Of a DNA stretch of 64,000 nt, positions 17,669 to 48,235 are shown in pieces. The notes beneath the pieces are model-generated. The model did no database searches. It was not told the origin of the DNA and saw only the letters and a list, made by a program, of their open reading frames with translations. The stretch's first letter is position 1, and each line of letters starts with the position of its first letter. Source of the DNA: a virus. The stretch is from IMG/VR virus record IMGVR_UViG_3300020039_000026; one strand, written 5' to 3'. The position numbers and the translations under genes are program-made.

Positions 17669-17673
17669 GTCGG

Positions 17674-17775: not shown

Positions 17776-17783
17776 TCCTCTCC

Positions 17784-17872
17784 CATTTTCTTTGGAAGGT
17801 TGGCTGAGCCTGGCTGAAAGCACCGGTCTTGAAAACCGGCAGCCCCAAAAGGGGCTCGTGGGTTCAAATCCC
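17784..17872 (+). tRNA. tRNA-Ser (anticodon TGA), class II
   Basis: Acceptor GGAAGGT/ACCTTCC with G73 discriminator, anticodon stem CCGGT/ACCGG, loop CTTGAAA, variable hairpin AGCCCC-AAAA-GGGGCT, T-arm GTGGG-TTCAAAT-CCCAC. Confidence 0.7.
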
Positions 17873-17905
17873 ACACCTTCCGCTTTTTGATTGGAGGAAT
17901 AAATC

Positions 17906-18325
17906 ATGACGGAATATCAACGGCAGGCAGAAGATTTTTTAGCCCGCAGCGGGACGACCATGAAAATCACACGCGACGGCGATGTGCGCGGCTTCCCGTT
18001 TGACAAAAGCGATCATCATATGCATGAGAAGTATCTCATCTCCATGCGTCGCGGCTGTCGCTCCTATGAGTTTCCTTTTTATGACTGTGCGGCGAACTTC
18101 CACACAAACAAGCGGCCAACCGCATATGATGTTCTGTCTTGTCTGGAAAAGTACGAAGTACCATCGGATGATTGGGATTTTGCACATGAGTTCGGCTACG
18201 ACATCCACGATAAAGAAAGCTTCAATCGCGTGTCCAAAATCCGTAAGGCGTGTGAAGAGCAATATGCCGCCCTGTATCTTATGTTCGGGGATCAATGGAT
18301 GGAAGAACTTAGGCAAATCAACTAA
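17906..18325 (+). CDS. Hypothetical protein
   Basis: 139-aa ORF with GGAGGAATAAATCATG RBS. Confidence 0.5.
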   Translation: MTEYQRQAEDFLARSGTTMKITRDGDVRGFPFDKSDHHMHEKYLISMRRGCRSYEFPFYDCAANFHTNKRPTAYDVLSCLEKYEVPSDDWDFAHEFGYDIHDKESFNRVSKIRKACEEQYAALYLMFGDQWMEELRQIN

Positions 18326-18382
18326 CCTATTGTCTGTTCATGAAAAGGATTAAGAATAGATAATCCAAAGCAGGTACTCCTT

Positions 18383-18787
18383 TTGGTTGTAAATGGGGGA
18401 ATATCTTTGTATATCCGAAAAAGTATCCATTCCATTGAGTCCGTCTACGAAGCCGTTCATGATACGATGTTCAATCCGAAAACCACATACATCCTATTCG
18501 ATGGCGATGAAATCAAAAGCACAAGTCAGCGCTATCAGGTATTTTTTACAAAAGGGATTCGCTGCGTTTCGTGCGGCATCGAAGGGAAATATTTTGCCAA
18601 GGAAAAAGGGCATGGTTCATCACAAGATCGCTATCACCTTAATTTATACGCCATTGACGAAAATGGCAAGGAAGTCCTGATGACCAAAGACCATATCATC
18701 CCAAGATCAAAGGGTGGTTTGAATCGTCTGGAAAACTATCAAACGATGTGTCAAATCTGCAATAGCAAAAAGGGAAGCGAACATTGA
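18383..18787 (+). CDS. HNH endonuclease, free-standing
   Basis: C-terminal HNH motif HIIPRSKGGLNRLENYQTMCQICNSKKGSEH with CxxC zinc ligands. Confidence 0.6.
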   Translation: MVVNGGISLYIRKSIHSIESVYEAVHDTMFNPKTTYILFDGDEIKSTSQRYQVFFTKGIRCVSCGIEGKYFAKEKGHGSSQDRYHLNLYAIDENGKEVLMTKDHIIPRSKGGLNRLENYQTMCQICNSKKGSEH

Positions 18788-18794
18788 TAGGTCT

Positions 18795-19595
18795 ATGGAT
18801 AAAGCATGGGTACAAGAAAAGGAAGCACAAAGGGCTGAAGAAATACGGCTTACCAAAGAAACTATCCGCCGGAAAATCTTAGACGCAGGGCTTCAGGAAT
18901 ATGTCGATGTTCTCTTAGCTGGCGTAGATAAGAGCTTTGATCTTCACGTATCATTTTTGTGCGGTTCAATAGAAATACTTGACGCAATTAAGAAGAAAAC
19001 TACTGGCAACAAAGAGCTATTTGCTTCTATTATCGAAAAGTATTGCTTGTTTGAGCATAGCATCCGCGAAGAGTTGGAAAAACTTTTTCAGCTTAAATAC
19101 AGCTTCCAGCAATTTTCCGACTCAGATCTGGTCGAGTTTGATGGGGATATTATCATTACAGATCCTTGCTATGTCATGCGAGACGACGCCGAAGATGATT
19201 GGGAAAAGTGTTCTTGCGGCGAGAACATGGACGAACTCGGCATCCATCACTTCATGAGCCGCAGTACCATTATTGGCGACTGGAGCTGTACTGTCTACAA
19301 TACAGATAATCATAGGAAGATAGGTGAGTTCTGCGCCGATGCGGGAATGGTTTCTGTTCTCCTGCTAAATGAAGTCCTTCAATACAATCCGTCCTTCGAC
19401 TATCATATAAATAGGAAGTGGACGACGGCGCTGATAAAGAATTTCAAAGGAACCGTTCAGTTTGTTGTTCACGAGGTACACTTTGAGTACAATGGCGAAG
19501 ATCATGTGGGCTACGAGGTGGAAGTAGTTGGGCATGGTGTCAATAAGAAAACCGGCAAGCCTTTCAACTTTTCGTCAAGACAAACCGGGTTATAA
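18795..19595 (+). CDS. Hypothetical protein
   Basis: 266-aa ORF. Confidence 0.5.
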   Translation: MDKAWVQEKEAQRAEEIRLTKETIRRKILDAGLQEYVDVLLAGVDKSFDLHVSFLCGSIEILDAIKKKTTGNKELFASIIEKYCLFEHSIREELEKLFQLKYSFQQFSDSDLVEFDGDIIITDPCYVMRDDAEDDWEKCSCGENMDELGIHHFMSRSTIIGDWSCTVYNTDNHRKIGEFCADAGMVSVLLLNEVLQYNPSFDYHINRKWTTALIKNFKGTVQFVVHEVHFEYNGEDHVGYEVEVVGHGVNKKTGKPFNFSSRQTGL

Positions 19596-19631
19596 AATTA
19601 CGCTTTTATTAATCGATAAGGAGGTAAACCT

Positions 19632-20042
19632 GTGGCATTTTGGAATAAAAAGAAGAAAAAAGATGAAAAGCAGGAACTTCCTATTAAAATATTATCCCCT
19701 TGCGAGCGTGGTGAACACCGTTACAAGGATTTTGATTGGTATATCAAAACATATGTTGATCAGTCCTATTATAACAACCGATATGTCGTTACGGTGATCG
19801 AACCATATGTCTGCATCCATTGCGGGCACCGCGAAGATCAGGAACTCGGCAAATGGATTTTTGCAAAGAAAACGGATAAAACCGCATTCGTTGAGCATCT
19901 CAGCAAGAATCCAAACATCAAGCCAATCATCGAAGTGGAAGACGCCATTCACGATATGCAGCTTGTCGATCGAGAGTATCTTTCAATTTTTCAGCAGCTC
20001 CATCCAGATAAAAAGATTTTGGATGAAGCCAAGCCGGATTAA
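19632..20042 (+). CDS. Hypothetical protein with Cys/His pairs
   Basis: 136-aa ORF with AAGGAGG RBS. CERGEHRY...CIHCGH suggests a zinc-binding fold. Its 3-prime end overlaps the tRNA-Thr start. Confidence 0.5.
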   Translation: MAFWNKKKKKDEKQELPIKILSPCERGEHRYKDFDWYIKTYVDQSYYNNRYVVTVIEPYVCIHCGHREDQELGKWIFAKKTDKTAFVEHLSKNPNIKPIIEVEDAIHDMQLVDREYLSIFQQLHPDKKILDEAKPD

Positions 20043-20105
20043 CTCAATTGGCAGAGTGCCGCTTTTGTACTGCGGAAGCTGCGGGTTCAATTCCTGTATC
20101 CGGCT
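20033..20105 (+). tRNA. tRNA-Thr (anticodon TGT)
   Basis: Acceptor GCCGGAT/ATCCGGC, D-stem ACTC/GAGT, anticodon stem CCGCT/TGCGG (terminal T-T), loop TTTGTAC, T-arm GCGGG-TTCAATT-CCTGT. No CCA. Confidence 0.55.
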
Positions 20106-20107
20106 CT

Positions 20108-20181
20108 GCCCCTGTCGCCTAAATGGAATAAGGCACCGGTTTCGTACTCCGGAGATGCTGGATCGTACCCAGCCAGGGGCT
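20108..20181 (+). tRNA. tRNA-Thr (anticodon CGT) with non-canonical T-loop ATCGTAC
   Basis: Acceptor GCCCCTG/CAGGGGC, D-stem GCCT/AGGC, anticodon stem CCGGT/TCCGG (terminal T-T), loop TTCGTAC, T-arm GCTGG-ATCGTAC-CCAGC. No CCA. Confidence 0.5.
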
Positions 20182-20205
20182 TTTGATTTGTAATGAGGTG
20201 ATATT

Positions 20206-20994
20206 ATGCCAGACTCCCTCGGTGACCGAATGAAAGCATATGAGAATATTTCCAGAATCTATCTTACGAAACGCCTGCCGGTTATTATCCGAATCGACGG
20301 GCGTGCGTTTCATACTCTTACTCGCGGTTTTGACCGTCCGTTTGATACTGTGTTTTCACGCTCTATGTGGGATACGGCGGCAGAGCTATGTAAGGAAATT
20401 GGCGGTGCAAAATTAGCTTACACCCAAAGCGATGAAATTTCCATCCTCCTCACCAATGACGATAACCTCGAAACCCAGCCGTGGTTCGATAATAATCTGC
20501 AAAAGCTGGTCAGTGTCGCCGCTTCGACCGCCACCAAGGAATTCAATAATATCTTCGACTGGTATTGGATCAATAATGATCCTGATGGAGAATTGCGGCT
20601 TGCTTATTCCAGAGCCTCCGGCGAAGCTACATTTGACGCCAGGGCATTCGTTCTTCCTCATGACGAGGTATGCAATTATTTCATTTGGCGGCAGCAGGAT
20701 GCCGTCCGCAATTCTATCCAGATGGCGGCTCAAAGCGTCTATTCTCACAAGGAACTGCAAGGGAAAAATCAAAACGACCTTCAGGAAATGTTGTTTCAGA
20801 AAGGAATCAATTGGAATAATTATGGTCCGTGGCACAAGCGCGGCGTGTGCGTAATTAAAAAGTTTGCGGAAGAGCAGGCCACCGGCGAGGAACAGGCACG
20901 TCTGCACTGGGTAGTGGATATGAATATTCCTATCTTCACTCAGGATCGTGGCTATATCGAAAACGCTTTGAAAGGGAATCAGAATGACACTTGA
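20206..20994 (+). CDS. Thg1-like protein (tRNA-His guanylyltransferase family 3-prime-to-5-prime polymerase)
   Basis: N-terminal MKAYENISRIYLTKRLPVIIRIDGRAFHTLTRGF matches the Thg1/TLP signature (FEYV...P.VVRIDGR.FH.F). 262 aa. Immediately downstream of the tRNA array. Confidence 0.6.
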   Translation: MPDSLGDRMKAYENISRIYLTKRLPVIIRIDGRAFHTLTRGFDRPFDTVFSRSMWDTAAELCKEIGGAKLAYTQSDEISILLTNDDNLETQPWFDNNLQKLVSVAASTATKEFNNIFDWYWINNDPDGELRLAYSRASGEATFDARAFVLPHDEVCNYFIWRQQDAVRNSIQMAAQSVYSHKELQGKNQNDLQEMLFQKGINWNNYGPWHKRGVCVIKKFAEEQATGEEQARLHWVVDMNIPIFTQDRGYIENALKGNQNDT

Positions 20995-22006
20995 AGAAAT
21001 CAAATCCACAATCGCAGGAAGCTCGTATGATTTTCTTAGAAATGATGAGCATTTGGTCGGCAGGATTGCTTTCATATGTCTCGGTGGTTCTTATGCATAC
21101 GGTACGAATGTAGAAGGTTCTGACCTGGATATTCGCGGCTGTGCATTAAATAGCGCAAGCGAGCTGATCGGCTTTCATCGTTTCGAGCAGCTTGTCGATT
21201 CCAAAACCGACACGACGATTTACGCCTTCAACAAATTGATCCGTCTCCTCCATTGCTGCAATCCAAATGTAATAGAGATGCTCGGTTGCAAACCTGAGCA
21301 TTATTTTTTCATGTCGGATGTCGGCAGGCAAATGATCGAGAACAGAAAAATGTTCTTGTCGAAACGTGCCGCCTATACATTCGGTGGCTATGCGTTCTCA
21401 CAGCTTCGTCGCCTTGAGAACGCCATTGCCCGTGACAGGCTTGATCAAGGCAGGAAAGAAGTTCATATCCGAAACAGCATTGATAAGGTTGTCAAGAATT
21501 TTAATAACGAAGGAAGAGCCATCCCTGTTTCATACACGCTTGATTTAGGCGCAGCCGTCCATGATGACCTGGAAACCGAAACATATATCACCATGGATTT
21601 AGGATATTATCCCGTCAGGGATTTAAAGGCGCTGGTCAACGAAATCAATAATGTCATTAACGACTATCAGAACGATCTGCATGGAAGAAATAAAAAGAAA
21701 GATGATTTTCATCTGAATAAACACGCCATGCATTTAATTCGCCTGTATTTGATGGCCATCGATATTTTGGAAAAGGAAGAAGTCGTCACATATAGAGAGA
21801 AGGATCACGACCTTTTGATGAGCATTAGGAATGGAAAATTCCAGCACGAAGACGGTACGTTCGACAGCTCATTCTTCGATTTGGTGCACCATCTTTCTCA
21901 TCGCATGGAATACGCGAAGGAAAACACGTCTCTTCCAAACAGTCCAGATGCAGACAAGATTGAAAAATTTGTAATGGATGTTAATCGACGAGTTATTTGT
22001 GATTAG
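20984..22006 (+). CDS. Pol-beta-superfamily nucleotidyltransferase (GS...DxD), specific family unassigned
   Basis: ICLGGSYAYGTNVEGSDLDIRG is the minimal NTase G[SG]x9-13DxD motif, followed by a roughly 250-aa helical region. Start overlaps the Thg1-like gene. Confidence 0.5.
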   Translation: MTLEEIKSTIAGSSYDFLRNDEHLVGRIAFICLGGSYAYGTNVEGSDLDIRGCALNSASELIGFHRFEQLVDSKTDTTIYAFNKLIRLLHCCNPNVIEMLGCKPEHYFFMSDVGRQMIENRKMFLSKRAAYTFGGYAFSQLRRLENAIARDRLDQGRKEVHIRNSIDKVVKNFNNEGRAIPVSYTLDLGAAVHDDLETETYITMDLGYYPVRDLKALVNEINNVINDYQNDLHGRNKKKDDFHLNKHAMHLIRLYLMAIDILEKEEVVTYREKDHDLLMSIRNGKFQHEDGTFDSSFFDLVHHLSHRMEYAKENTSLPNSPDADKIEKFVMDVNRRVICD

Positions 22007-26466: not shown

Positions 26467-26688
26467 ATGAGGTCACAATTGGTTTATAAAAAAATCGGCC
26501 ATGAATTGCTGGCGAATAATATGGATACACAGATGCTCGCAGAGGCGACCGGGATCCCATATTATACGCTAAGAAGCCGATTTCGAGGGGAGTCTTCTTT
26601 CACCCTGGATGACGCAATCAGGATACATAAAGTCATCGGTTCGCACATGTCTATTGAACAATTATTTGAGAGAGATGATGTCCATTGA
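26467..26688 (+). CDS. Small helix-turn-helix DNA-binding regulator candidate
   Basis: 73 aa. LAEATGIPYYTLRSRFRGESSFTLDDAIRI looks like an HTH recognition region. AAAGGAGG RBS. Confidence 0.4.
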   Translation: MRSQLVYKKIGHELLANNMDTQMLAEATGIPYYTLRSRFRGESSFTLDDAIRIHKVIGSHMSIEQLFERDDVH

Positions 26689-27833
26689 TCTATTTAGACA
26701 ACGCGGCTACCACGCCATGCTCAAGGCGTGTCGTCGAAGAAATGCTCCCTTATTTTGAAACCAACTTTGGAAATCCGGAAAGCCTTCATGAAGCAGGGAG
26801 CATTTTACATGATCCAATCTATCAGGCCAGGATGTATGTCTCCGGCCTGTTTGGCGATCATCAGTGGCCTCATGTTGTATTTACATCAGGCGGCACAGAA
26901 GCCAATAATTTGGCTATTCTCGGCGCATCCAGGCGTCTTCTGGCGTCCGGAAAGACGCACTTGATAACTTCTATGACCGAGCACAAATCCGTTCTGGAGG
27001 CGTTCAGAAGGCTTGAAAATCAAGGCTTCCAGGTGACTTACCTAAAGCCTATCGAGCATGGTCTTATTACCGCTGAGCAGGTAAAGAACGCTCTTCGTTC
27101 CAATACCGGTTTTGTGTCCATTATGTTTGTAAATAACGAAACAGGGTGTGTCAATCAGGTAGCTGCCATTGGCAGGCTCCTCGATAAAAGGAATGTTTTA
27201 TTCCATGTTGACTGCGTCCAGGCGGCCGGATGCTATGAGATCAACCATAGGAGTTTGTGCGCTGATTTTCTGACGGTTTCCGCTCATAAAATCAACGGGC
27301 CAAAGGGAATTGGAGCGCTTTGGGTCAGATCGGCTGACCTAATCAACCCCATTCTTTGCGGCGGAGAGCAGGAGATGTTCCTTCGTCCAGGCACGCAGAA
27401 CGTACCGGGTATTATCGGGTTCGGCGAGGCAGCCAAGGCCGTCACCTCATTGCAGTTTGAACGCGCCGTTCACATCAGGCAGCTTGAAGAGCATTTATTC
27501 CGCCTGCTCAAAAACGGCCTGGAAGGATTCTACAGGAATTTTTCTTCCACATTTACCTGCCCAAAGGTTGCCAGCTACTTTTTTGACGGCGTTGACGGGG
27601 AAACGCTCTCAGCAGCCCTGAGTCTTCGCGGTGTTTGCGTATCCACAGGCGCTGCCTGTAACTCTCAGTCATCGGAGCCGAGCTACGTTCTTCTGGCATC
27701 CGGGCTGACTCCACAGGAAGCCTCCCAAACAATCCGGGTGTCTTTTTCGGACCAAAATACAATGGAAGAAATGGAAGAAGCCGCCGATATTATTATCGAT
27801 ACGGTCAGTTTTTTAAGAAACAGAGCCGCTTAA
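26685..27833 (+). CDS. Cysteine desulfurase (NifS/IscS/DndA-type aminotransferase class V)
   Basis: IYLDNAATTP N-terminus, PLP-lysine motif SAHKINGPKGIGAL, C-terminal active-site-region Cys (TGAACNS). 382 aa. Confidence 0.75.
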   Translation: MIYLDNAATTPCSRRVVEEMLPYFETNFGNPESLHEAGSILHDPIYQARMYVSGLFGDHQWPHVVFTSGGTEANNLAILGASRRLLASGKTHLITSMTEHKSVLEAFRRLENQGFQVTYLKPIEHGLITAEQVKNALRSNTGFVSIMFVNNETGCVNQVAAIGRLLDKRNVLFHVDCVQAAGCYEINHRSLCADFLTVSAHKINGPKGIGALWVRSADLINPILCGGEQEMFLRPGTQNVPGIIGFGEAAKAVTSLQFERAVHIRQLEEHLFRLLKNGLEGFYRNFSSTFTCPKVASYFFDGVDGETLSAALSLRGVCVSTGAACNSQSSEPSYVLLASGLTPQEASQTIRVSFSDQNTMEEMEEAADIIIDTVSFLRNRAA

Positions 27834-31282: not shown

Positions 31283-31714
31283 ATGGCTATCTATCCAAAC
31301 GACACAATCAGGAATCCCAAGATCGGCGATATCTATATGATGTCATTCGACGGGGAGGGCAGCGAGCAGGGCGGTTTGCGGCCTGGCATCGTTTTCCAAA
31401 ATAATATCGGCAACGCCCACAGCCCAAATCTGATTGCTCTCCCCCTTACATCCGCAATCAAAAAGATCAATCTTCCGACCCACGTTTATCTTCCGGCGAA
31501 AGATACAGGGCTTAGGCGGGACAGTATCGCGCTTTGTGAAAATCCGCAGCGCATGTCAAAAGCCCGCCTCGGCCGTTATATTACCCATTTGCCGGATTCC
31601 TATATGAAGCAAATCGCCGTAGCCAATCTCGTGGCTACATCCGCTATTTCTTTCATTGATTTCGATACCCTGGTCAAAACATGGGAGACCAGTGTTCGGT
31701 ACAACGCATCGTAA
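31283..31714 (+). CDS. MazF/PemK/Kid-family (CcdB/MazF fold) endoribonuclease toxin-like protein
   Basis: GDIYMMSFDGEGSEQGGLRPGIVFQNNIGNAHSPNLIALPLTS matches the PemK/MazF N-terminal signature (GD...RP.LVV..N...VIV.P.TS). 143 aa. Extended -10 TGGTATACT at 31241. Confidence 0.6.
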   Translation: MAIYPNDTIRNPKIGDIYMMSFDGEGSEQGGLRPGIVFQNNIGNAHSPNLIALPLTSAIKKINLPTHVYLPAKDTGLRRDSIALCENPQRMSKARLGRYITHLPDSYMKQIAVANLVATSAISFIDFDTLVKTWETSVRYNAS

Positions 31715-31981
31715 TCATTTATTCTTTATCCAGACAGCCGTTCCTGGCTGTCTTTTTTCGTACAGAAAAATAAACTGGAGGTATTGCTGTGTTCTATTTT
31801 CTACCATGGCAGCTTGCCGCTCTCGCTCTGTTTCTTCTTGTCGTCGGTATGCTGATATGGCGCGGTATTCATCTGTCCTGTGTCCATCGGCGCCTGCGCA
31901 GTGAGGCCAGATACCGCAGGCAGCGAACCCATAGCTTAAATAATTGGCAGCGTGGCTATTATCAGCAAAGGAGCTATTGAT

Positions 31982-32422
31982 ATGCAATCGCCGGTAATGC
32001 TTCACCGTGAGGCGGAGTTTGATACGTGCCATCCGGAGGATCACCTCTGCAAGTTCCTCGAATTCTGTTCTAACGTAGTCAGCCGTTACGAAGGAAATCT
32101 CAGAGAATGCGACGAGATGGAAAATACGCTGCAGGATCTTCTTCATTATGTTGAAATGACGGACGATGATGATCCAAATATTTGCCTTGCTATCAGAAAC
32201 GCACGCAGGCAGCGCAGGCTTTGCAAGAATGAAAACGATCTGCTCCAGCCCTTCTATGAATTCATCAGCGATAAAACGCTTGTCAATAAGCTGTCTCAGA
32301 TCCTTGGCAAGGTTCGCGCAGCTGATGAGCGTGTTACAAAAAGAACCTACATCGCCAGAACTGACGCATTGGAAAAGATCATCGACCGGGAAGAAAAGAC
32401 TGAGGCTGACGAGACGACTTAA
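31982..32422 (+). CDS. Hypothetical protein
   Basis: ATG at 31982 within ORF-track entry 31952-32422. Confidence 0.4.
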   Translation: MQSPVMLHREAEFDTCHPEDHLCKFLEFCSNVVSRYEGNLRECDEMENTLQDLLHYVEMTDDDDPNICLAIRNARRQRRLCKNENDLLQPFYEFISDKTLVNKLSQILGKVRAADERVTKRTYIARTDALEKIIDREEKTEADETT

Positions 32423-32436
32423 ATGGAGGATATGAA

Positions 32437-32973
32437 TTGACTACCAAAAAATATCTTGTTGTTATCGACATGCAGAATGATTTTATCGACGGTTCTCTTG
32501 GCACCAAAGAAGCTCAGGCTATTGTCCCGCGTGTCGTTGATCGAATCAAGGAATGTATCAATGAAGGTTACGAGGTATTCGCCACGCAGGACACACACGG
32601 CAACGATTACCTTGATACGACGGAGGGTAAATACCTTCCCGTGCGACACTGCATTGACGGAAGTCCGGGGCATGAAATCCCGCAGGAGATTCTGGAACTC
32701 ATTCCGCAAAACAATATCATCATCAAGAATACATTTGGCTCCATCCCGCTCGGATATACCCTTCAATGGCGACCGGCGGCCTGCGAAAATGTCATTATTG
32801 AATTGGTTGGCCTGTGCACGGATATCTGCGTTGTCACCAACGCGCTGCTTCTTAAAACGTTCCTTCCAAACGCAATCATTCGGGTCAACGCGGCTTGCTG
32901 TGCTGGCGTAACGCCAGAATTGCACGAAGCCGCGCTTAAAACAATGAAATCGTGCCAGATTGAAATCATTTAA
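32437..32973 (+). CDS. pncA: Nicotinamidase / isochorismatase-family cysteine hydrolase
   Basis: LVVIDMQNDF (Asp), IIKNTFGS (Lys) and GLCTDICV (Cys) form the isochorismatase/PncA catalytic triad. 178 aa. Confidence 0.7.
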   Translation: MTTKKYLVVIDMQNDFIDGSLGTKEAQAIVPRVVDRIKECINEGYEVFATQDTHGNDYLDTTEGKYLPVRHCIDGSPGHEIPQEILELIPQNNIIIKNTFGSIPLGYTLQWRPAACENVIIELVGLCTDICVVTNALLLKTFLPNAIIRVNAACCAGVTPELHEAALKTMKSCQIEII

Positions 32974-32984
32974 TCGGAGGTTTT

Positions 32985-33770
32985 ATGACTTATCGTTTTG
33001 ATCCAGTTCGTGTGCGGGATGAGCTTGTCTCTCAAATCAGAGAATACATGAACGGCCAGGGGATTGAAAGGGTTGTTGTCGGAATTTCTGGTGGTAAAGA
33101 CTCCACCGTCACTGCCGCCCTGTGCGTAAGAGCCCTCGGAAAAGAAAATGTATTCGGCGTTATGCTTCCCGATAAGGTTCAGTTGGATATATCCGATAGC
33201 TTAAAGGTATGCCGTGTGCTGGAAATTCCTCATACAGAAATCAACATTGGGGCTGCGCACATAGAGCTGCTCAGGGCAATTGACTTGGCGAATGATCGCA
33301 GTGAGCATGAATATTTCGATGTCCTCTTCTCTCCCGAAAGCGACATCAATATCGGTCCCAGGCTGCGTATGACAGCGCTCCGGTATATTACACAGGCACT
33401 CGGAGCACGGCTTGCCGGGACAGGGAATTTGTCCGAAATTACCGTCGGTTATTGCACGAAGGACGGAGATACTTCATGCGACCTCTCCGTTCTTGGGAAC
33501 TTGACCAGCGAGGAGGTCGTGCAGGTTGGCCTAACCATGGAAGAGCTTCCGCGTGAACTGGTCGTGAAGACTCCGTCCGACGGTCTCTCTGGTATGTGCG
33601 ACGAAGAGAAGCTCGGTATCCTCTATTCAGATATTCATCAATATATCCGTTTTGGAACAAGCGGAAACAGCGAGATTGATCTGAAAATATACCAAAAGCA
33701 TTGTGCGAATCTCCACAAGTTTATGAAGCCATATACGCTGATCCCGCCCGTATGGAGTGATGAATATTGA
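32985..33770 (+). CDS. nadE: NH3-dependent NAD+ synthetase
   Basis: PP-loop VVVGISGGKDSTVTAAL. Size and overall pattern match NadE. 261 aa. Confidence 0.8.
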   Translation: MTYRFDPVRVRDELVSQIREYMNGQGIERVVVGISGGKDSTVTAALCVRALGKENVFGVMLPDKVQLDISDSLKVCRVLEIPHTEINIGAAHIELLRAIDLANDRSEHEYFDVLFSPESDINIGPRLRMTALRYITQALGARLAGTGNLSEITVGYCTKDGDTSCDLSVLGNLTSEEVVQVGLTMEELPRELVVKTPSDGLSGMCDEEKLGILYSDIHQYIRFGTSGNSEIDLKIYQKHCANLHKFMKPYTLIPPVWSDEY

Positions 33771-34387
33771 AAAGAATACTTGCCTTCTTTGGCGCGTTTA
33801 ATCCCCCAACAAAAGCCCATATCGAATTGGCAGAACTCGCCATGAAGAAAACCTGCAGCGAAGAGGTTATCTTTATTCCATCGCAAAGTGAATATATTAC
33901 CGAGATTCAAAAGAAGAATTTCGCTTTTGAAGATGGCGAACGCATATATATGTTAGATAGCCTCATACAAAACCATCCTTGGCTTAACGTTTGCAATCAT
34001 GATATCGTAGCCGATATGCAGCCAAGGACATATGAGACGCTATGCTGGCTTCGGGATAGGTTCGGCATCAAGCCAAAGCTGCTAATTGGCGAGGATCAAT
34101 TTCTACAAATGGAAACTGCTTGGAAAAATGTGCCCGAGATAGCCAAAGAATTCGGCATTGTCGTTATGTCTCGGCCGTTTTCTTTCGCAAACTCATACAT
34201 CAAAAACACTCCGTTCTATCAAAGTATCGCGCAATATGTCACAGAAATAGAAGCGCCGTCCGCATACAAAGGAATGTCGTCAACAGACGTAAGAGAGCAT
34301 ATTCAACAGGCAAAGGCACATATTGATTCAATTAAGCGTATCGTGCCGGAGGAAGTCCTCCGCTATATCAAGGAGAATTACCTATGA
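33767..34387 (+). CDS. nadD: Nicotinate-nucleotide adenylyltransferase-like cytidylyltransferase
   Basis: FGAFNPPTKAHIEL (HxGH-type), MSSTDVRE (ISSTxIR-like) and VLRYIKENYL C-terminus are typical of NadD. 206 aa. Translationally coupled to both neighbours. Confidence 0.7.
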   Translation: MKRILAFFGAFNPPTKAHIELAELAMKKTCSEEVIFIPSQSEYITEIQKKNFAFEDGERIYMLDSLIQNHPWLNVCNHDIVADMQPRTYETLCWLRDRFGIKPKLLIGEDQFLQMETAWKNVPEIAKEFGIVVMSRPFSFANSYIKNTPFYQSIAQYVTEIEAPSAYKGMSSTDVREHIQQAKAHIDSIKRIVPEEVLRYIKENYL

Positions 34388-35586
34388 AACTTGAACCAAT
34401 TATCCAATCTCTGCTTGACACCGACTTGTATAAGTTCAATATGAACCAGGTCATGTTCCATTTTCATTCGGATTTATGGGGAGAATATGATTTCAAATGC
34501 AGAAACCAAGGCGTGGTTTTTACGGAAGAAATGCTGCAGGAAATCTACGAGCAGATCAAGCACCTTTGTGCCCTCCGGTTCACCGACGACGAACTGAATT
34601 ATCTGCGTTCCATCCGCTTTATTAAACCGGATTACGTCGAATTCCTCCGTCTTTGGCATCCTATCGAAAAGTATGTTTCGATTGGCCTGTATGACAGCGG
34701 AGAATTGTCTGTCAGGGTTTCCGGCCCTCTGTTTTCCGCAATGCAATTCGAGATCTACCTGCTGGAAATTATCAATGAAGTGTATTTTCGTATGCATCCG
34801 GAATACTCTTACAACGCGCTGGTAGGAAGCGCGAGAGGTCTTTTGCACGATAAGATCTTGAATTTCAAAAATGGCAATTATACATTCAACTTTGCCGAGT
34901 TCGGCTGCCGCCGTCGTTTATCCCGCGAATGGGAGGACGAAATGATTCAGATGTTCGTCGATAACAACATCAGAAACATGGTTGGCACTTCCAATGTGTA
35001 CTTGGCCAAGAAATACGGTCTTACTCCAATCGGCACATTCGCCCATGAGTTCGTCCAAATGTACCAGGGAATTCCAAAAATCCCGCTGGCTTATACGAAT
35101 TATTACGCACTTAAGGATTGGTATAACGAATACAAAGGGGATAACGGCACAGCGCTTACGGACACGATCACTACCGATTTATTCCTTCTGGATTTCGACC
35201 GTAGCATGTGCAACAACTTTACCGGCGTCCGCCATGATTCCGGCGATCCATATGTATGGGGCGATAAGATGATTGCTCATTACCAGAAGTATGGCATCGA
35301 CCCAAAAACCAAAACACTTCTGTTCTCCGACAGCCTGAATTTCAAAAAAGCACAGGCGCTGTACGATTATTTTAAAGATCGCGCCAAGGTTTCCTTTGGT
35401 ATCGGCACATTTGTTTCCAACGATACCATAGCCACTCCTCTCAATATCGTTATCAAGCTCCAGTCCGTTAATGGGAACCCGGTTGCCAAGCTCTCAGATT
35501 CTGAAGGGAAAACCATGTGCCGCGATCCACAGTACATTGATTACTTAAAGAACGCGGTTCGGTTCAGGTTAAACCGTGACAGCTAA
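34384..35586 (+). CDS. pncB: Nicotinate phosphoribosyltransferase
   Basis: N-terminus IIQSLLDTDLYKFNMNQVMFHFH matches E. coli PncB ([22 protein letters not shown]). 400 aa. Confidence 0.8.
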   Translation: MKLEPIIQSLLDTDLYKFNMNQVMFHFHSDLWGEYDFKCRNQGVVFTEEMLQEIYEQIKHLCALRFTDDELNYLRSIRFIKPDYVEFLRLWHPIEKYVSIGLYDSGELSVRVSGPLFSAMQFEIYLLEIINEVYFRMHPEYSYNALVGSARGLLHDKILNFKNGNYTFNFAEFGCRRRLSREWEDEMIQMFVDNNIRNMVGTSNVYLAKKYGLTPIGTFAHEFVQMYQGIPKIPLAYTNYYALKDWYNEYKGDNGTALTDTITTDLFLLDFDRSMCNNFTGVRHDSGDPYVWGDKMIAHYQKYGIDPKTKTLLFSDSLNFKKAQALYDYFKDRAKVSFGIGTFVSNDTIATPLNIVIKLQSVNGNPVAKLSDSEGKTMCRDPQYIDYLKNAVRFRLNRDS

Positions 35587-35986
35587 AAAGAGTGATTTCG
35601 ACATTTTGCTGGAAATGCTCGATAGATCAATGTACAGAAACCACTATGAAGTGTTTGAGTTTGATAACAGATGCAGAGGAATTACGATTCATGACGCGGC
35701 GGACAGCATCGATTTGCTTTTCAACAAAGCCGGGAAGATAGAATAATGAAAAAAGGAGCGGTTCCATGTGTAAGACTCATTTGCTTAAATGCCCAACCGA
35801 CGAGGATGACGATCCGGATATGAATGGCGAAATGAATTGCCAGGACTGTGACTTTGCTGGTTGTGGTGTTTGCAACCATCCGGACGCTGTGTATGTAGAT
35901 GGAGACGGTAGATATACGTGATTTTGTAAAACGGACCGTTCTGTGTCTGAAACGCCGTTGTTTTCGCATCACAAGAGAGGTGTAGC

Positions 35987-37203: not shown

Positions 37204-38295
37204 ATGAGAAAATTGGCAAGCATTAAAACGATTGCCTCTATCTCCCCTATCGAAGGCAAGGACCGTATTGGTCTTGCCACGGTGGATGGATGGCAGGTCA
37301 TCGTTCAAAAAAGTGAGTTTTCTCCGGGGGATCGATGTGTTTATGTCGAAATCGATTCTGTTATGCCGGAGAAGCCGGAGTTTGAATTTCTGCGCAAGAA
37401 GGATTTTCGTATTCGCACCATGAAGATGGCTGGCGTTATCAGCCAGGGAATCTGTTTCCCGCTCTCCATTCTGCCTCCGAAGGAAAACGGAGAATACGAA
37501 TTGGAGGAAGACGTTACCGAAATCCTCGGCATCACCCAATACGAGCCAACTATGGACGCCGACCCAGAACCGGATGAAACCGGTAAGAGCAAGGTGCGAA
37601 AGTACCCTGCTTTTTTGATGCGTTTTAAATGGTTTAGAAGCCTTGTCCTGCCAAAGAAAAGGAACAAGGGCTTCCCGACCTTCGTCAGCAAAACCGATGA
37701 AATACGAATCCAGAATATTCCGAACATCGTTCATGATAAACGGGAATGGATCGCCACGGAAAAAGTGGATGGCCAGTCTGGAACATTCGCGCTGGTTCGT
37801 CACAAGAGCCGTATACCATTTAAAAAAGATACGTTTGAGTATATCGTCTGCTCCAGGAACTTGCGGCTATTGAAGCCGGATCGCACCCCCTATTGGCGGG
37901 TTTCCGATCGGTATCAGATCGAAAATGCGCTAAGAAATATGATCGGCGATCGCGATTGGATCGCCATCCAGGGAGAATGCGTCGCTCCCAATGTGCAGGG
38001 TAATAAATACAAGGTCAAGGAGCCAGATCTCTATGTATTTAATCTCATTTATCCAACGGGGAGAGTCGATTCCATTCGCGCAAAATCCATCATCGAGCAG
38101 CACGGCATGAAGTTCGTGCCTATCATTGGCACGGGTTACGTCCTGCCAGATTCCGTCGAAGAAGTTTTGGCTTATGCCACAGGTCAGAGCACACTGGCAG
38201 ATACGCTCAGAGAGGGAATTGTATTCCGGAGCAACGACGGGAAACATTCGTTCAAGGCTGTTTCGCCGGAATTCCTGCTGGCTTATAACGAATAA
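37204..38295 (+). CDS. ATP-dependent RNA ligase, Rnl5-like architecture (N-terminal domain plus nucleotidyltransferase domain, no C-terminal OB)
   Basis: Ligase motif I KxDG (WIATEKVDGQSGTF) about 190 aa into the protein. Motif IV/V-like LREGIVFRS...FKAVSPEF. 363 aa, matching the size and layout of DraRnl/NgrRnl-type ligases. Confidence 0.55.
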   Translation: MRKLASIKTIASISPIEGKDRIGLATVDGWQVIVQKSEFSPGDRCVYVEIDSVMPEKPEFEFLRKKDFRIRTMKMAGVISQGICFPLSILPPKENGEYELEEDVTEILGITQYEPTMDADPEPDETGKSKVRKYPAFLMRFKWFRSLVLPKKRNKGFPTFVSKTDEIRIQNIPNIVHDKREWIATEKVDGQSGTFALVRHKSRIPFKKDTFEYIVCSRNLRLLKPDRTPYWRVSDRYQIENALRNMIGDRDWIAIQGECVAPNVQGNKYKVKEPDLYVFNLIYPTGRVDSIRAKSIIEQHGMKFVPIIGTGYVLPDSVEEVLAYATGQSTLADTLREGIVFRSNDGKHSFKAVSPEFLLAYNE

Positions 38296-40578: not shown

Positions 40579-41016
40579 GTGCGTATGTATTACCACGAAG
40601 AACAAATGAATCTTCTCAGCGTTCCACAAGGTTATATGCTTGCACATTGTATCAGCGGAGACTACGCCTTGGGTGCCGGGATTGCCAAACAAATCGATCA
40701 GGCATTCGGCATGAAGGACATGTTGAAAACTCGCTGGCGCTTTATCGATTACGATTCATGCGGGCCAATTTGCCTCACATGCGCAAATGTGTATAATCTC
40801 GTCACAAAACCAAAGTTTTGGAATAAGCCAACGCTTGGTACGCTGCGTGAGGCGCTTTTATCAATGAGGCGGAACGCGGAAACAGACGGAGTCAAGAAGA
40901 TCGCCATGCCGAAAATCGGCTGTGGGCTTGACAGACTTAATTGGGAAGATGTCAAAAAGATCATTATGGAAATCTTTGATGATATGGACGTGGAAATTCT
41001 CGTATGCTACCTATAA
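40579..41016 (+). CDS. Macro-domain (ADP-ribose binding/processing) protein candidate
   Basis: LAHCISGDYALGAGIAKQI and IAMPKIGCGLDRLNWEDVKKII resemble the macro-domain Gly-rich loop and the IAFPxISTGxYGxP block. 145 aa. Confidence 0.45.
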   Translation: MRMYYHEEQMNLLSVPQGYMLAHCISGDYALGAGIAKQIDQAFGMKDMLKTRWRFIDYDSCGPICLTCANVYNLVTKPKFWNKPTLGTLREALLSMRRNAETDGVKKIAMPKIGCGLDRLNWEDVKKIIMEIFDDMDVEILVCYL

Positions 41017-44284: not shown

Positions 44285-46424
44285 TTGCTGGACAGCTGTA
44301 CGGACTTTAAAGAATATGTCGATCTCGCCAAGAAATACGGCCAGAAAGCCATCGCCACAACCGAACACGGTATGCACAAGGGCTATATTGCCAAGAAGCT
44401 CTACTGCAATGAGGTCGGCATGAAGCTTCTCATTGGCGTAGAGGTTTACTTAACTGAGCAGCTTGAGCCAAAGGTCAGGGATAACTACCACACTATCCTG
44501 ATCGCTAAGAACGAAGAGGGCTTAAAGGAAATTCATCGGCTGATCCGCATGTCCACCCAGGACGATCACTTCTATTATAACAACCGGATCTCATTTGATG
44601 AGTTCCTGAATATTTCCGATAACATTATCAGCACCAGCGCCTGCCTCGCTTCCCCTTTAAATAAGCTTCCGGACGATCATCCGTATTATATGCGGCTGGC
44701 GAGAAAGTATAATTATTTAGAGGTTCAGCCCCACAACCACCCGGAACAAATCGCGTTCAATAAAAGGCTGCTTTTATTATCACAGAAAATCGGCACACCG
44801 CTGATCGTTGGCACAGACACGCATAGCTCCACGCCTTATATGGCAGAATGCCGCGCCGTACTGCTTGCCGCCAAAGGCAAAAAGTACCACGACGACGAAT
44901 TCGATCTTACATATAAAACCTACGATCAGCTTGTTGAAATGTTTCGTATCCAGGGCGCTCTTCCGGAAGAGGTTTACCTTGAGGCGCTTGAAAATACCAA
45001 CGTACTTTCAGACAGCGTCGAAGATATTCCTCTGGATACCTCCATTAAGTATCCTATTCTGTACGGCTCCCGCGAAGCGGATGACCAGAAGTTTGCCGAA
45101 ACAGTAGAAAGCAAGTTCCGTGAAAAATTGGAATCCGGCATCATTCCTCAAGAGCAGGAAGCAGCCTTCCGTTCGGCAATTGATGAAGAAATGCGCGTGT
45201 TCAGAAAGCTGAAAATGACGGGCTTCATGCTCTCCATGTCTGAGCTTATCAGCTGGTGCCGCAATAACAATATCGCTATCGGCACGGCTCGCGGTTCCGT
45301 CGGCGGTTCGCGCATCGCATATGTCACCGATATTATCGACCTGAACCCAGAGCAATGGCATACGGTCTTCTCGCGGTTTTGCAACGAGGACCGGGTTGAA
45401 ATCGGGGATATCGATATCGACTGCATTGAAACAGACCGCCCGCGCATCTTCGAGCATATCATTTCCAGATTCGGCGCGGATAAATGCGCCCGCGTGGCTT
45501 CTTACGGCACTATCCAGGATAAGAAGGTCGTCGATGAAGTTGGCCGCTATCTCGCGGATCAATGGAAAATAAAGCATCCTGATGGCGGCGACAATCCATA
45601 TTCCATCAAGCAGCTCATGAAGATCAAACAGGAGTTCGAGAGCAATCCAGAAAAAACAAAGGAAAAGTATCCGGAAATTTTCTACTATTTCGATGGCTTG
45701 ATGAATACGAAGATCAGCCAGAGCGTTCACCCTGCCGGTATGGTTATCAGTCCGATTGTGCTAAGTGAAAATTATGGCACTTTCATGAAAGACGGCGAAT
45801 GGTGCCTGATGCTTGATATGGAGGAGGTTCACGACGGCTGCGGGCTTGCCAAATACGATTTTTTGATTCTGAAAACGGTCCAGGTAATTCGCGATACATG
45901 CCGTCTGATTGGCGTGCCGTACCCAAGAACACACGAAATCAACTGGAACGATGAAGCGGTCTGGGCAGATATGCGAAAAAATCAAACGGCGATTTTCCAG
46001 TTTGAAAGTGTATTTGCAGCAGATTGCTTCAAAAAATTCAAAACAGACAGCATCGAAGATATGTCTCTGGTTACTGCCTGTATCCGCCCGTCCGGCTCCT
46101 CCTACCGTGATGAACTACTGGCAAGAAAGGTTCATAAGAATCCGTCCGCCATCATCGACGAGCTGTTAAAAGACAACCTGGGCTGGCTTGTATATCAAGA
46201 GGACACCATCAAGTTCCTCCAGCAGATTTGCGGGCTGTCAGGAAGCGAGGCCGATAATATCCGCCGTGCCATCGGCCGTAAGCAAAAGGATCGTCTGGAT
46301 AAGGCTATGCCATCCATTTTGGAAGGATATTGCAATAAGTCTGATAAGCCAAGAAAGGAGGCGGAGGCCGAAGCAAAAGAATTTTTGCAGGTTATCGAAG
46401 ACAGCGCCAGCTACCAGTTTGGGT
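44285..46424 (+). CDS. dnaE: DNA polymerase III alpha subunit, exon 1 (PHP domain and polymerase core). Ends ...SYQFG plus one nucleotide before the intron.
   Basis: PHP motifs IHVHSDYSLLDS and ATTEHGMHKGY, plus the DnaE palm/fingers region. The ORF stops at TAA 46424-46426, just inside the proposed intron. Confidence 0.75.
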
Positions 46425-47255
46425 AAATGATTTGCCCTTTGCAGCAGAGATGTTGTATTATAACGATGTGAACACATATCAAAGTGGTGTATCAGCAACG
46501 AAAGTAACTGCAGGAAATGGCAGTGTATGCTGATGCTAACAGGGAAACCTTCTCGTAATTTACGAAAGGCAATCCTGTGCCAAGCTGAGTTCTAAGAAAG
46601 GAGGATGTGTTTATGTGGAAGTCTATTAAAGGATATGAAGGTTACTATGAAGTTAGTGACGATGGCCGCGTTAGGAGTCTCGATAGAATAGTCAAAAACT
46701 TTGGTGATTACCAACGTCATCTCAAAGGGAAAGAGATGAAATTAACTATGGCGAACAACGGATATTATGTTGTCAATCTTCGCAAAAAAAGATCAGCTAA
46801 GGTTTTTACCGTTCATACTCTTGTGGCGCAAGCATTTATAGATAATCCAAATAATTACCCGACCGTAAACCACAAAGACGGGAATAAGCTAAACAACAGA
46901 GTCGATAATCTCGAATGGGTTTCTTACGGCGAAAACAATGTTCATGCTATTGTGCATAATCTTCGTAGACCACGAGGAGTATCAGTCTCGCAGTTCGATC
47001 TCTTCGGAAATATAATTGCCGTATTTCGTTCTGTCACAGAAGCCTCAAGGCAAACCGGTGTTTCGAGAGAAAGCATTTCTTTGTGTGTAAACCACTATAC
47101 ACATTCAGCCGGAGGATATATCTGGAAAAGGGACTCAGAAGGTCAAACGACTATCTCGAAAGAGAGTACACCGGAGACTGATGCCGGTGGAAGCGCATCG
47201 CATCCGTAATGGATGAAGATATAGTCTATACCATCAGAAATGATGGAATAATATG
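46425..47255 (+). other. Group I intron candidate interrupting dnaE, carrying an HNH homing endonuclease ORF
   Basis: Exon 1 ends in U (46424) and the intron ends in G (47255). Joining 46424 to 47256 gives a seamless frame ...SYQFG-Y-NHSIAYCLLGYL... that aligns with E. coli DnaE [19 protein letters not shown]. Candidate internal guide GCCC (46435) pairs with exon GGGU, giving a U-G wobble at the splice site. Confidence 0.55.
46607..47209 (+). CDS. HNH homing endonuclease (NUMOD4 plus HNH plus C-terminal DNA-binding module), intron-encoded
   Basis: GYEGYYEVSDDGRVRSL (NUMOD4), VNHKDGNKLNNRVDNLEW (HNH), ASRQTGVSRESISLCVNH (IENR/NUMOD1-like). Confidence 0.7.
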   Translation: MFMWKSIKGYEGYYEVSDDGRVRSLDRIVKNFGDYQRHLKGKEMKLTMANNGYYVVNLRKKRSAKVFTVHTLVAQAFIDNPNNYPTVNHKDGNKLNNRVDNLEWVSYGENNVHAIVHNLRRPRGVSVSQFDLFGNIIAVFRSVTEASRQTGVSRESISLCVNHYTHSAGGYIWKRDSEGQTTISKESTPETDAGGSASHP

Positions 47256-48235
47256 ATAATCATTCAATCGCTTACTGCCTGCTTGGTTATCTGTGCGGAT
47301 ATTACAGGCACTATTACCCAGGCGAGTTTATCACAGCCTTTTTGAATAACGCCGCCAACGACGACGACATCAGCAACGGCACATTACTTGCCAGGGTCTA
47401 TGGTATCAAGGTCACGCCGCCAAAATTCGGCGCATCGCAGAGCGAATATTCCTATAACCCAGAAACTAAAGAAATCGCAAAAGGTCTTTCGTCCATTAAG
47501 TTCATCGGGGAAAAGCTTGCAATCTCTCTGTATGAAATGTCCAGGCAACATGAGTATACATATTTTTCAGATGTGCTTGCCGACGCCCATACATACTGCG
47601 GAATCGACGCCAGACAATTGGATATTCTTATCCGAATCGACTTTTTCAGCAAGTTCGGCAACCAAAGGGAACTGAAACGCATTGTCGATCTATATGATAT
47701 GTTTTCTGGTGCAAGCCAAATTAAAAAAAAGAAAATCGAAGGATCCTATTTTGAAGAAATCGTCGCCAAGTACGCGAACGGCCTTACAAAAACAGGAAAG
47801 GAAGCGGCCTCCTGGACGATAATCGATAACGCAGCTATCATCCATGACTGTGAAAAAAAGATATTAAGTCTTGATCTTCCTGATATGAACATCGTTTCCA
47901 AGGTAAGGAGTTTCGCTGAAGCTATGGGATACGCGGGGTACATTTCCGGCAGCGACGAGGACAGAGCAAAGCTGTATATCAGAAAGGTTTTCCCCGTAAA
48001 AAGGAAAAAGGACGGGAAGCAATTCGGCTACAGCATCCTCACGCAGTCGATTGGATCTGGGAAGGAAAGCAGATTTACGATTTTCAATCCAGTTTTTGAC
48101 GCCGACCCTATTAAAGAAGGCGATGTAATTCTTTGTAAAGGATGGCGTCGCGACAACGGTGGTTACTTTACTATGACTGCCTACAAAATTTTGCGCGGTG
48201 ATGACATGGACGAAATTGAGGAGGAAACAGCGTGA
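47256..48235 (+). CDS. dnaE: DNA polymerase III alpha subunit, exon 2 (C-terminal region). ORF track shows it as 47342-48235.
   Basis: The frame is open from 47252. IAYCLLGYLCGYYRHYYPGEFITAFLNNAANDDD aligns with DnaE [37 protein letters not shown]. No independent RBS and ATG at the junction. Confidence 0.65.

Follow-up and report, generated by a model that had tools for sequence, protein, structure and literature searches.

Phage NAD+ pathways and the locus under study

Only three phage pathways yielding nicotinamide adenine dinucleotide (NAD+) have been tested experimentally, and they follow the amidated route or recycle ADP-ribose. NAD+ reconstitution pathway 1 (NARP1), formed by Adps and Namat, obtains NAD+ from ADP-ribose through ADP-ribose pyrophosphate (ADPR-PP); NARP2, formed by Nampt/NadV and Nmnat/NatV and known from Vibrio phage KVP40, starts from nicotinamide, phosphoribosyl pyrophosphate (PRPP) and ATP (Osterman et al., 2024); NARP3 joins a PnuC-like transporter to a bifunctional NadR-like NMNAT-RNK enzyme (Yan et al., Sci Adv 2026, PMC13464706). 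A Preiss-Handler cluster, pncB-nadD-nadE, has been predicted in gut jumbo phages such as Kuafu_71 by Li et al. (Microbiome 2024, PMC11662467), who mentioned phage pncA and saw the NAD+ pathways of phages and hosts as complementing each other. The genes pncA, pncB and nadE figure among the viral auxiliary metabolic genes of a virome survey (PMC12647753), a 2022 survey of viral NAD+-ADP-ribose (ADPr) systems covered only NadV with NadM/NadR, and no "NARP4" appears in the searchable literature. Here we describe a 3.15-kb operon, pncA-nadE-nadD-pncB, located at positions 32437-35586 of a 64,000-nt stretch (hereafter the window) of the IMG/VR virus record IMGVR_UViG_3300020039_000026. We regard it as likely that these genes form a functional deamidating salvage operon, captured from a rumen Clostridia host by the ancestor of a group of temperate phages of ~100-160 kb and kept by them as a movable cassette. 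The four open reading frames (ORFs) are the following.

32437-32973, + strand: pncA, nicotinamidase, 178 aa (Pfam Isochorismatase, 6e-22; TTG start after GGAGGA)
32985-33770, + strand: nadE, single-domain NH3-dependent NAD+ synthetase, 261 aa (NAD_synthase, 1e-42)
33767-34387, + strand: nadD, nicotinate-mononucleotide adenylyltransferase of the NadD/NMNAT family, 206 aa (CTP_transf_like; TIGR00482)
34384-35586, + strand: pncB, E. coli-type nicotinate phosphoribosyltransferase, 400 aa (NAPRTase_N and NAPRTase, PF17767 and PF04095)

As a phage accessory module leading from nicotinamide to NAD+ the operon resembles NARP2, which nonetheless takes two amidated steps via nicotinamide mononucleotide (NMN), whereas the window encodes four deamidated steps via nicotinate, nicotinate mononucleotide (NaMN) and nicotinate adenine dinucleotide (NaAD). 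The only phosphoribosyltransferase of the window is indeed a nicotinate phosphoribosyltransferase (NAPRTase, TIGR01514), and no match to NAMPT was found among the scanned ORFs. NARP1 also rebuilds NAD+ from the products of its breakdown, but its genes were not found in the scanned window ORFs, where a Pfam search of about 60 ORFs (those shorter than 100 aa being scanned in part) returned no PRPS-like/Adps or Namat domain. NARP3 has no component in common with the four genes.

The NAD-jumbo phages are alike in their clustered pncB, nadD and nadE, in their occurrence in the animal gut and in being described through bioinformatics only (Li et al., 2024). They are set apart by their description, since they exceed 200 kb, carry a three-gene cluster and, for Kuafu, have Bacteroidota as predicted hosts, whereas the window belongs to integrase-bearing contigs of 106-114 kb, finds its nearest cellular homologues in Clostridia and includes pncA, which gives entry from nicotinamide. 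These sizes are those of the contigs as assembled (106 and 114 kb for the contigs with the operon, 142-159 kb for their relatives), jumbo being used for >200 kb. The first-pass annotation of the window had presented the route as distinct from two described phage pathways; this is correct for NARP1 and NARP2, but the count has been overtaken by the third tested pathway, NARP3, published in 2026 (PMC13464706), and the novelty was overstated given the pncB-nadD-nadE clusters reported from gut jumbo phages in 2024 (PMC11662467) and the listing of pncA, pncB and nadE in viromes (PMC12647753). What is new here is the complete nicotinamide-to-NAD+ operon, pncA included, in diverse and apparently common temperate Clostridia phages of ~100-160 kb, together with its apparent origin from a host operon and its modular variants.

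The closest likeness is with cellular genes. Chromosomal operons of rumen bacteria (loci L027-L053) share the gene order, the single-domain NadE, the T-x-x-H subtype of NadD, the E. coli-type PncB and the catalytic motifs, from which the phage copies differ by forming a separate, long-branched clade, with 39-76% identity to the chromosomal proteins and with phage genes as neighbours. Chemistry and enzyme families are identical to those of the classical PncA/PncB/NadD/NadE salvage of Escherichia coli, Salmonella and Bacillus subtilis. In these three bacteria the genes are scattered or paired, whereas in the window all four stand in one compact operon on a virus.

Enzyme assignments and predicted route

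The four ORFs, all on the + strand, are found in the ORF list of the window at the coordinates first reported, and were called identically by two gene callers on matching public contigs. Their assignment as PncA, NadE, NadD and PncB is borne out by curated profiles, alignments with solved structures and conserved motifs: the D/K/C triad, the SGGKDS loop and the NadD motifs quoted in the first-pass annotation are present, and conserved in up to 38 homologues per gene. The profile searches which it had suggested, run here with Pfam and NCBIfam, produced neither of the reassignments it had named, an unrelated nucleotidyltransferase for NadD or NAMPT for PncB. With all four sets of catalytic motifs intact, in addition to the profile matches, the enzyme identities hold.

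PncA matches PF00857 with 78.9 bits (cut-off 27) over residues 7-177, and its nearest solved relatives are the nicotinamidases of Pyrococcus horikoshii (1ILW) and Mycobacterium tuberculosis (3PL1). The triad D11/K97/C131 aligns with D10/K94/C133 of 1ILW, with the Lys column off by one residue, and with D8/K96/C138 of 3PL1, the published residues being numbered by us. In the alignment, D52/H54/H71 fall precisely on the Zn-binding residues D52/H54/H71 of the P. horikoshii enzyme, and both triad and metal site are invariant in 35 homologues. Such an Asp-His-His metal site sets nicotinamidases apart from other isochorismatase-like enzymes, and PncA possesses it.

NadE scores 141.8 bits against TIGR00552 (nadE; cut-off 63.65), remaining below the cut-offs of whole-protein equivalogs (PRK13980 and others), and its best matches in the PDB are NH3-dependent enzymes, e.g., 2E18. 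The PP-loop SGGKDS at residues 35-40 is kept in 33 of 35 homologues. NAD_synthase is the sole domain detected by Pfam, with no CN_hydrolase (glutaminase) domain.

PncB exceeds by far the cut-offs of TIGR01514 (437.9 bits vs. 269.55) and PRK05321 (492 bits vs. 379), and aligns with the Pseudomonas aeruginosa enzyme 1YIR at 299 bits; no NAMPT/NadV model among the curated profiles matched it. Its H221 lies in GTFAHEF, the counterpart of GTMAHEW in 1YIR, and is kept in all 38 sequences, with GT(F/Y)AHE(F/Y) as the family motif. In the enterobacterial enzyme, the histidine of GTxAHE is the residue that is phosphorylated in an ATP-dependent manner.

NadD passes TIGR00482 marginally, with 114.1 bits (cut-off 112.45), and falls below the cut-offs of all the organism-specific NadD equivalogs. 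The NadD enzymes of Staphylococcus aureus (2H29) and B. subtilis (1KAM) are its best PDB matches. The motifs GAFNPPTKAH (T15...H18) and SSTDVR (171-176) are conserved in 38 homologues, in the general forms GxFNPxTxxH and SS(T/S)xxR, and some 25 chromosomal operons have the gene flanked by nadE and pncB. A preference of the enzyme for NaMN over NMN is suggested by this context, nadD always adjoining nadE and pncB.

The enzyme assignments support the route from nicotinamide through nicotinate, NaMN and NaAD to NAD+ that had been proposed at first. Judging from its sequence, PncA is predicted to deamidate nicotinamide to nicotinate and NH3; PncB would join nicotinate to PRPP, giving NaMN; NadD would convert NaMN and ATP to NaAD; and NadE would use NaAD, ATP and NH3 to form NAD+. 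As NadE is NH3-dependent, the ammonia freed by PncA would equal what NadE consumes.

The enzymes might also work with a different flux, NadD acting mainly on NMN in conjunction with PnuC, PncA acting on another amide, or the whole set serving mainly niacin. The NadD motif GAFNPPTKAH does resemble GSFNPITNMH of eukaryotic dual-specificity NMNATs, human NMNAT3 is the second-best PDB match, TIGR00482 includes both nicotinate and nicotinamide nucleotide adenylyltransferases, and pncA is not adjacent to the other genes in several chromosomal operons and some viral loci. We consider such a flux improbable, because without NaAD there would be no substrate for NadE, yet nadE and nadD adjoin in every Clostridia-type operon, and because PncA has the nicotinamidase-specific metal site and nicotinamidases as its nearest structures.

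Operon layout and expression signals

As read from the sequence, nadE and nadD overlap in TTGA and nadD and pncB in ATGA, and a GGAG-type Shine-Dalgarno sequence precedes each of the four genes; pncA and nadD start with TTG. The translational coupling previously proposed for the four genes thus applies to nadE, nadD and pncB, which overlap, and not to pncA, which is separated from nadE by an 11-nt spacer. Three features border the operon.

31732-31753, + strand: intrinsic-terminator-like hairpin, 9-bp stem and T-run (AGACAGCC-GTTC-CTGGCTGTCT, then TTTTTC)
31982-32422, + strand: ORF146, weak match to phrog_2717 (PHROGs), without Pfam or NCBIfam match
35576-35746, + strand: 56-aa ORF with GTG start, overlapping the 3' end of pncB by 11 nt

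The hairpin closes the upstream MazF-like gene, is the strongest terminator of the region, and is likely to mark the 5' boundary of the transcription unit with the NAD genes. No promoter-like site was found by a consensus scan between it and ORF146, and no riboswitch or other known RNA was found upstream of the operon, whether the entire window was searched at gathering thresholds or 31650-32500 at E <= 1. ORF146 is preceded by AAAGGAG as its Shine-Dalgarno sequence; 14 nt separate its end from pncA, with which it is probably co-transcribed. It was considered as a fifth member of the module and rejected: its homologues in L003 and L008, two of the related phage loci carrying the NAD genes, do not stand beside pncA, and none was found in two others, L063 and L007, indicating that ORF146 is a gene of the phage backbone.

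On the 3' side, the hairpin scan revealed no terminator after pncB, so that transcription probably continues into small ORFs and the RNA ligase gene, the NAD operon being part of a longer early/middle transcription unit. Of the matching contigs, only that of the JGI has the 56-aa ORF among its called genes, and no homologue was found in related loci. Lying in the + strand early/middle array, between the upstream terminator and the genes for RNA ligase, recombination and replication, the operon is presumably expressed in lytic growth. As to the gene upstream of the hairpin (31283-31753 region), of the MazF/PemK toxin type, no recognisable antitoxin gene adjoins it.

Phage context

Almost all the genes of the window lie on the + strand. 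They comprise a replication and recombination set (RNA ligase, ERF, a PD-(D/E)XK nuclease, DnaB, primase and DnaE), NrdD/G, an ATP-dependent DNA ligase, PhoH, a ClpP-like protease, FolD, dUTPase, GP88 and ThiF, as well as reverse transcriptase, Thg1-like, RlaP, SPFH, MazF-like and cysteine-desulfurase-like proteins. A tyrosine integrase and an Xis-like helix-turn-helix (HTH) protein indicate that the phage is temperate. Beyond the window, the same contig proceeds with an IS3 transposase and then with minus-strand genes including an endolysin (Phage_lysozyme2, CHAP, SH3). Two near-identical contigs from different assemblies match the window sequence, one of 114 kb in JGI (3300011008, Ga0139362_1000209) and one of 106 kb in the ENA, and the backbone of the window is shared by contigs of 142-159 kb from other samples and by several IMG/VR viral contigs. 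The genes flanking the operon on both sides are common to IMG/VR viral contigs and to contigs of 100-160 kb. The source is a large (~106-114 kb) temperate phage of the ruminant gut, and the operon is phage cargo.

That the operon is instead chromosomal DNA, part of a chimeric assembly or carried by a non-phage integrative element is very improbable. Such a reading could draw on the lack of capsid and terminase genes in the window and on the few proteins recognised by PHROGs, which, run on ten unannotated ORFs, gave almost no matches and showed no structural genes; public labels moreover err in both directions, one deposited "phage" being chromosomal ("Acinetobacter phage MD-2021a") and one phage contig being filed in a Ruminococcus metagenome-assembled genome (MAG). 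Against it stand the two flanks shared with viral contigs, the endolysin just past the integrase, the uniform composition and the clade of their own formed by the phage operons. The first-pass annotation had left open that the block might be recent chromosomal DNA, an eventuality opposed by the phage flanks, the separate clade (200/200 bootstraps) and the phage-like GC content, overall and at third codon positions (GC3).

Chromosomal counterparts and origin of the operon

One genome per prokaryotic species was scanned with an alignment of the phage NadD proteins, yielding 34 loci, about 25 of which are MAGs of rumen Clostridia, Christensenellales and Parasporobacterium with nadE-nadD-pncB in the same order as in the window, mostly with pncA first. 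The proteins encoded there have 60-76% (NadE), 39-47% (NadD), 69-73% (PncB) and 52-57% (PncA) identity to those of the window. Beyond the NAD genes, these ~25 loci share no phage gene, except for one dUTPase-like match in L052, and the four loci with annotated flanks encode products usual for a chromosome: GH3, amylase, arabinofuranosidase, MatE, HflX, SfsA, a DinB-type polymerase and SbcD. Since the same gene order is that of an ordinary chromosomal operon of rumen Clostridia, a ready-made host operon appears to have been captured whole, and the operon is not an invention of the phage. One of the 34 loci, L026 (CADBUP010000171.1, a 110-kb contig in the MAG "Ruminococcus sp. RUG14314"), is a mis-binned phage, 100% identical to L063.

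Other chromosomal arrangements exist. In Erysipelotrichaceae, e.g., Lactimicrobium massiliense, a coupled pncA-pncB-nadD-nadE operon encodes a glutamine-dependent NadE, a 649-aa protein with CN_hydrolase and NAD_synthase domains in Lactimicrobium, and a type devoid of nadD, pncA-nadE-pncB, is found on a 985-kb bacterial contig (L006). On this contig, 9 nt after the three genes, lies a gene for a 707-aa protein with TIR_2 and leucine-rich repeats (9210-11333), a possible NADase thus encoded beside chromosomal NAD+ salvage genes; this arrangement was not seen at the other chromosomal loci.

In a tree of concatenated NadE, NadD and PncB, built without outgroup, the branch dividing the five phage operons with this gene order (window, L003, L063, L007 and L008) from 19 chromosomal operons received 200/200 bootstraps. 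With PncB alone the phage clade was recovered in 98/100 bootstraps. GC and GC3 of the operon equal those of the rest of the phage. Synonymous sites are saturated between phage copies, and where nonsynonymous divergence (dN) and synonymous divergence (dS) could be computed, the former is far below the latter (omega 0.04-0.5); most pairs being saturated, purifying selection is a qualitative statement only, under which the operon would have been retained as a movable accessory cassette. The complete split, the saturation and the phage-like composition together indicate that the capture is old and that the operon is not recent host DNA.

Variation among related phages and databases

The survey of related phages that had been suggested found the same four-gene block in L063, beside dUTPase and integrase genes, and a version with an inserted macrodomain gene in L003-L005 (pncA-macro-nadE-nadD-orf66-pncB). 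L065 (9472-14283) carries pncA-pncB-nadD-nadE-NMNAT-PnuC-CinA, the last with a PncC-like NMN deamidase domain, and L064 (9460-13011) carries pncA and pncB followed by an energy-coupling factor (ECF) transporter S component, with nadE further on. Two backbone relatives, L073 and L074, have no NAD genes between MazF and RNA ligase. The module, rearranged, moved or absent in the relatives, is therefore an accessory cassette. Between the window and L003, identity amounts to 85-95% in the flanking genes, 85% in PncB and 58-65% in PncA, NadE and NadD, a difference that makes recombination within the operon likely.

Roughly 94 of the 120 PncB clusters closest to the phage protein in the protein database are nearest to phage-type references, on a rough nearest-reference measure with many small margins. 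Searched as nucleotides against 50,697 deposited phages, the operon gave essentially no match. At protein level, PncB was found in 13 records of deposited phages, all below 45% identity, and NadD-like matches reached at most 31% identity, mostly in unannotated fragments. Two of the 13 PncB records are mislabelled chromosome; the "Acinetobacter phage MD-2021a" (L066, CAKLQH020000008.1) is a bacterial chromosome with nusB, ribH, thiL and serB around pncB. Atu_ph07 has pncB alone, and the only distant pncB-nadE...nadD-like set among deposited phages is that of the unverified MT835470.

Second NAD locus and ADP-ribose gene

Besides the operon, the window holds two further NAD genes and one gene related to ADP-ribose.

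12992-13747, + strand: NadR-type NMN adenylyltransferase domain only (aa 88-240; TIGR01526 positions 3-144 of 325)
13748-14467, + strand: PnuC-type nicotinamide riboside transporter, directly after the NMNAT gene (Pfam NMN_transporter, 3e-38)
40579-41016, + strand: macrodomain of OARD1/TARG1 type, ADP-ribose/O-acetyl-ADP-ribose hydrolase family (PDB 4J5R, 5e-22, full length)

The best PDB match of the first protein is the NARP3 enzyme Bas30_86 (9X6F/9X6H), of which it covers residues 9-153 of 357; the ribosylnicotinamide kinase domain (residues 167-351 of Bas30_86) is absent. The true start of the ORF may be internal, since its counterpart orf179 of L065 aligns only from about nt 13235. The transporter scores 120.2 bits against TIGR01528 (cut-off 42.45). 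The separate PnuC/NMNAT pair noted previously does exist, at 12992-14467, but its NMNAT is devoid of the kinase domain; compared with NARP3, the PnuC and NMNAT halves are present and the kinase half is missing, and the pair is therefore an incomplete NARP3.

The macrodomain gene lies 5 kb downstream of the operon and its product shows a weak match to the DarG model; in L003 the homologue (5945-6367) is part of the NAD operon itself, with pncA before it and nadE after it. The CinA/PncC-like and ECF S-component genes of the relatives have no counterpart in the window, and no further NAD/ADPr genes were found among its mid-size ORFs.

Possible roles of the operon

By means of the operon, an infected cell would be better able to restore its NAD+ from nicotinamide or niacin. 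The benefit might consist in NAD+ being upheld against NADase defences or against a shut-off of host synthesis, or in a larger supply of NAD+ for an extensive replication programme.

TIR/SIR2-type NADases release nicotinamide. The operon could accordingly be read more narrowly as dedicated to counter-defence, a "fourth NARP" rebuilding NAD+ from the nicotinamide freed by NADases of the TIR, SIR2 and SEFIR types. With only two enzymes NARP2 works on the same principle, and NARP1-3 establish NAD+ rebuilding as a real phage strategy. The module is a variable accessory cassette, a macrodomain that processes ADP-ribose is found inside the operon of L003 and 5 kb off in the window, and the same phage holds what appears to be further counter-defence equipment (a tRNA repair set and the PnuC/NMNAT pair). 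On the other hand, the route would cost PRPP, about three ATP and four enzymes. Furthermore, E. coli and B. subtilis, with native pncA, pncB, nadD and nadE, are still depleted of NAD+ by Thoeris, DSR and SIR2-HerA. Owning the pathway is thus insufficient, and protection would need a much higher flux than a host operon gives. Removal of nicotinamide would also relieve the product inhibition of sirtuin-type enzymes, and the transporters that accompany the module in related phages (PnuC, ECF S component) suggest external vitamin uptake, which is not peculiar to the reuse of NADase products. Counter-defence is therefore plausible, at a little less than even chances, and the strong NAD+-restoring counter-defence announced in the first-pass annotation was overstated, being an inference that the sequence does not separate from metabolic augmentation.

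General NAD+ boosting is about equally likely, although well short of probable in its own right. In this case the operon would serve as auxiliary metabolism or lysogenic conversion, providing more NAD+ for replication or a better salvage of rumen vitamin B3 in lysogens. The operon copies the one of the hosts, the phage is temperate (integrase, Xis-like HTH protein) and many metabolic genes are aboard (NrdDG, FolD, dUTPase, cysteine-desulfurase-like protein, ThiF). Relatives add PnuC, CinA/PncC-like and ECF S-component genes, suited to precursor uptake and NMN recycling, and complementary phage and host NAD+ pathways have been described (Li et al., 2024, PMC11662467). Yet the DNA ligase of the phage is ATP-dependent, the window yielded no phage enzyme that consumes NAD+, the operon is not bracketed by a moron-like promoter and terminator, having an upstream terminator only, and its patchy presence in close relatives fits conflict-driven genes at least as well as housekeeping metabolism.

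Returning to the captured and functional salvage operon that we favour, a number of observations weigh against it. PncA reaches only 31.4 bits against the E. coli-type equivalog NF008623 (cut-off 174), over the N-terminal 55 residues; this model represents the 213-aa enterobacterial PncA, the phage protein being of the short ~180-aa type, and for the nicotinamidase call we therefore relied on active site, metal site, nearest structures and gene context. The margin by which NadD passes its curated model is narrow (1.6 bits), and a preference for NaMN or NMN is not readable from the sequence. The phage clade has weak bootstraps in the single-gene trees of NadE (45), NadD (65) and PncA (21), for which reason we relied on the concatenated analysis, and as the tree lacks an outgroup the host-to-phage direction is deduced from the broad chromosomal distribution rather than demonstrated. 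In the DNA examined there is no capsid or terminase gene, the structural arm lying outside. The consensus promoter scan upstream gave 13 sites, against 12.8 expected in shuffled sequence, and with no promoter detected, expression may also occur in the prophage state. Finally, the evidence comes from sequence.

We consider doubtful the most far-reaching proposal, according to which the operon would be a fourth, mechanistically distinct NAD+ reconstitution pathway, common among large temperate phages infecting rumen Clostridia, that beats TIR/SIR2 immunity, feeds NadE with the ammonia of PncA and works with a TARG1-type macrodomain sometimes embedded in the operon.

Depletion of NAD+ is among the commonest outcomes of bacterial anti-phage immunity, and the operon, compact and clonable with its 3.15 kb, is a candidate for reaching NAD+ from the same nicotinamide by the deamidated route. 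Natural variants are available, with or without nadD and with macrodomain insert, PnuC, CinA or ECF component, as are host operons for comparison. The operon could show whether over-supplying the host's own salvage beats NADase defences, which bears on the robustness of immunity and on the engineering of Firmicutes phages. Abundant uncultured large rumen phages would moreover be investing heavily in NAD+ supply, with relevance to the vitamin B3/NAD+ economy of the rumen.

Other features of the window

A tRNA cluster at 15083-22006 contains eight tRNAs and a ninth weak Rfam match (17685-17784), and one of the calls, a tRNA-Asn at 16576-16648, has the unusual anticodon ATT. Together with this cluster, the Thg1-like enzyme, the RlaP nucleotidyltransferase and the RNA ligase (15083-22006, 37204-38295) resemble a tRNA repair kit. 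The ThiF-family adenylyltransferase and the class-V aminotransferase of cysteine-desulfurase-like type (9885-10556 and 26685-27833) may act together in sulfur relay or thiolation.

The DNA polymerase III alpha subunit is split over 44285-48235: the part with PHP, pol3-alpha and finger domains occupies 44285-46426, an HNH/NUMOD homing endonuclease follows at 46607-47209, and the C-terminal piece with HHH_6 lies at 47342-48235. In L063 the same subunit is split at a different point. Directly upstream of folD (57048-57959), the "skipping-rope" RNA motif RF02924 was detected at 56839-56913 with 57.6 bits (gathering threshold 36.7).

The reverse transcriptase with a nearby DUF6273 protein (5376-6149, 11714-12856) recalls a diversity-generating retroelement, and a second pair of this kind lies on the minus strand just past the window (L071, 18631-21137). 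Between the integrase and the lysis genes, the IS3-family transposase (HTH orfA and rve orfB) spans the end of the window (62994-64000; L071, 13096-14285).

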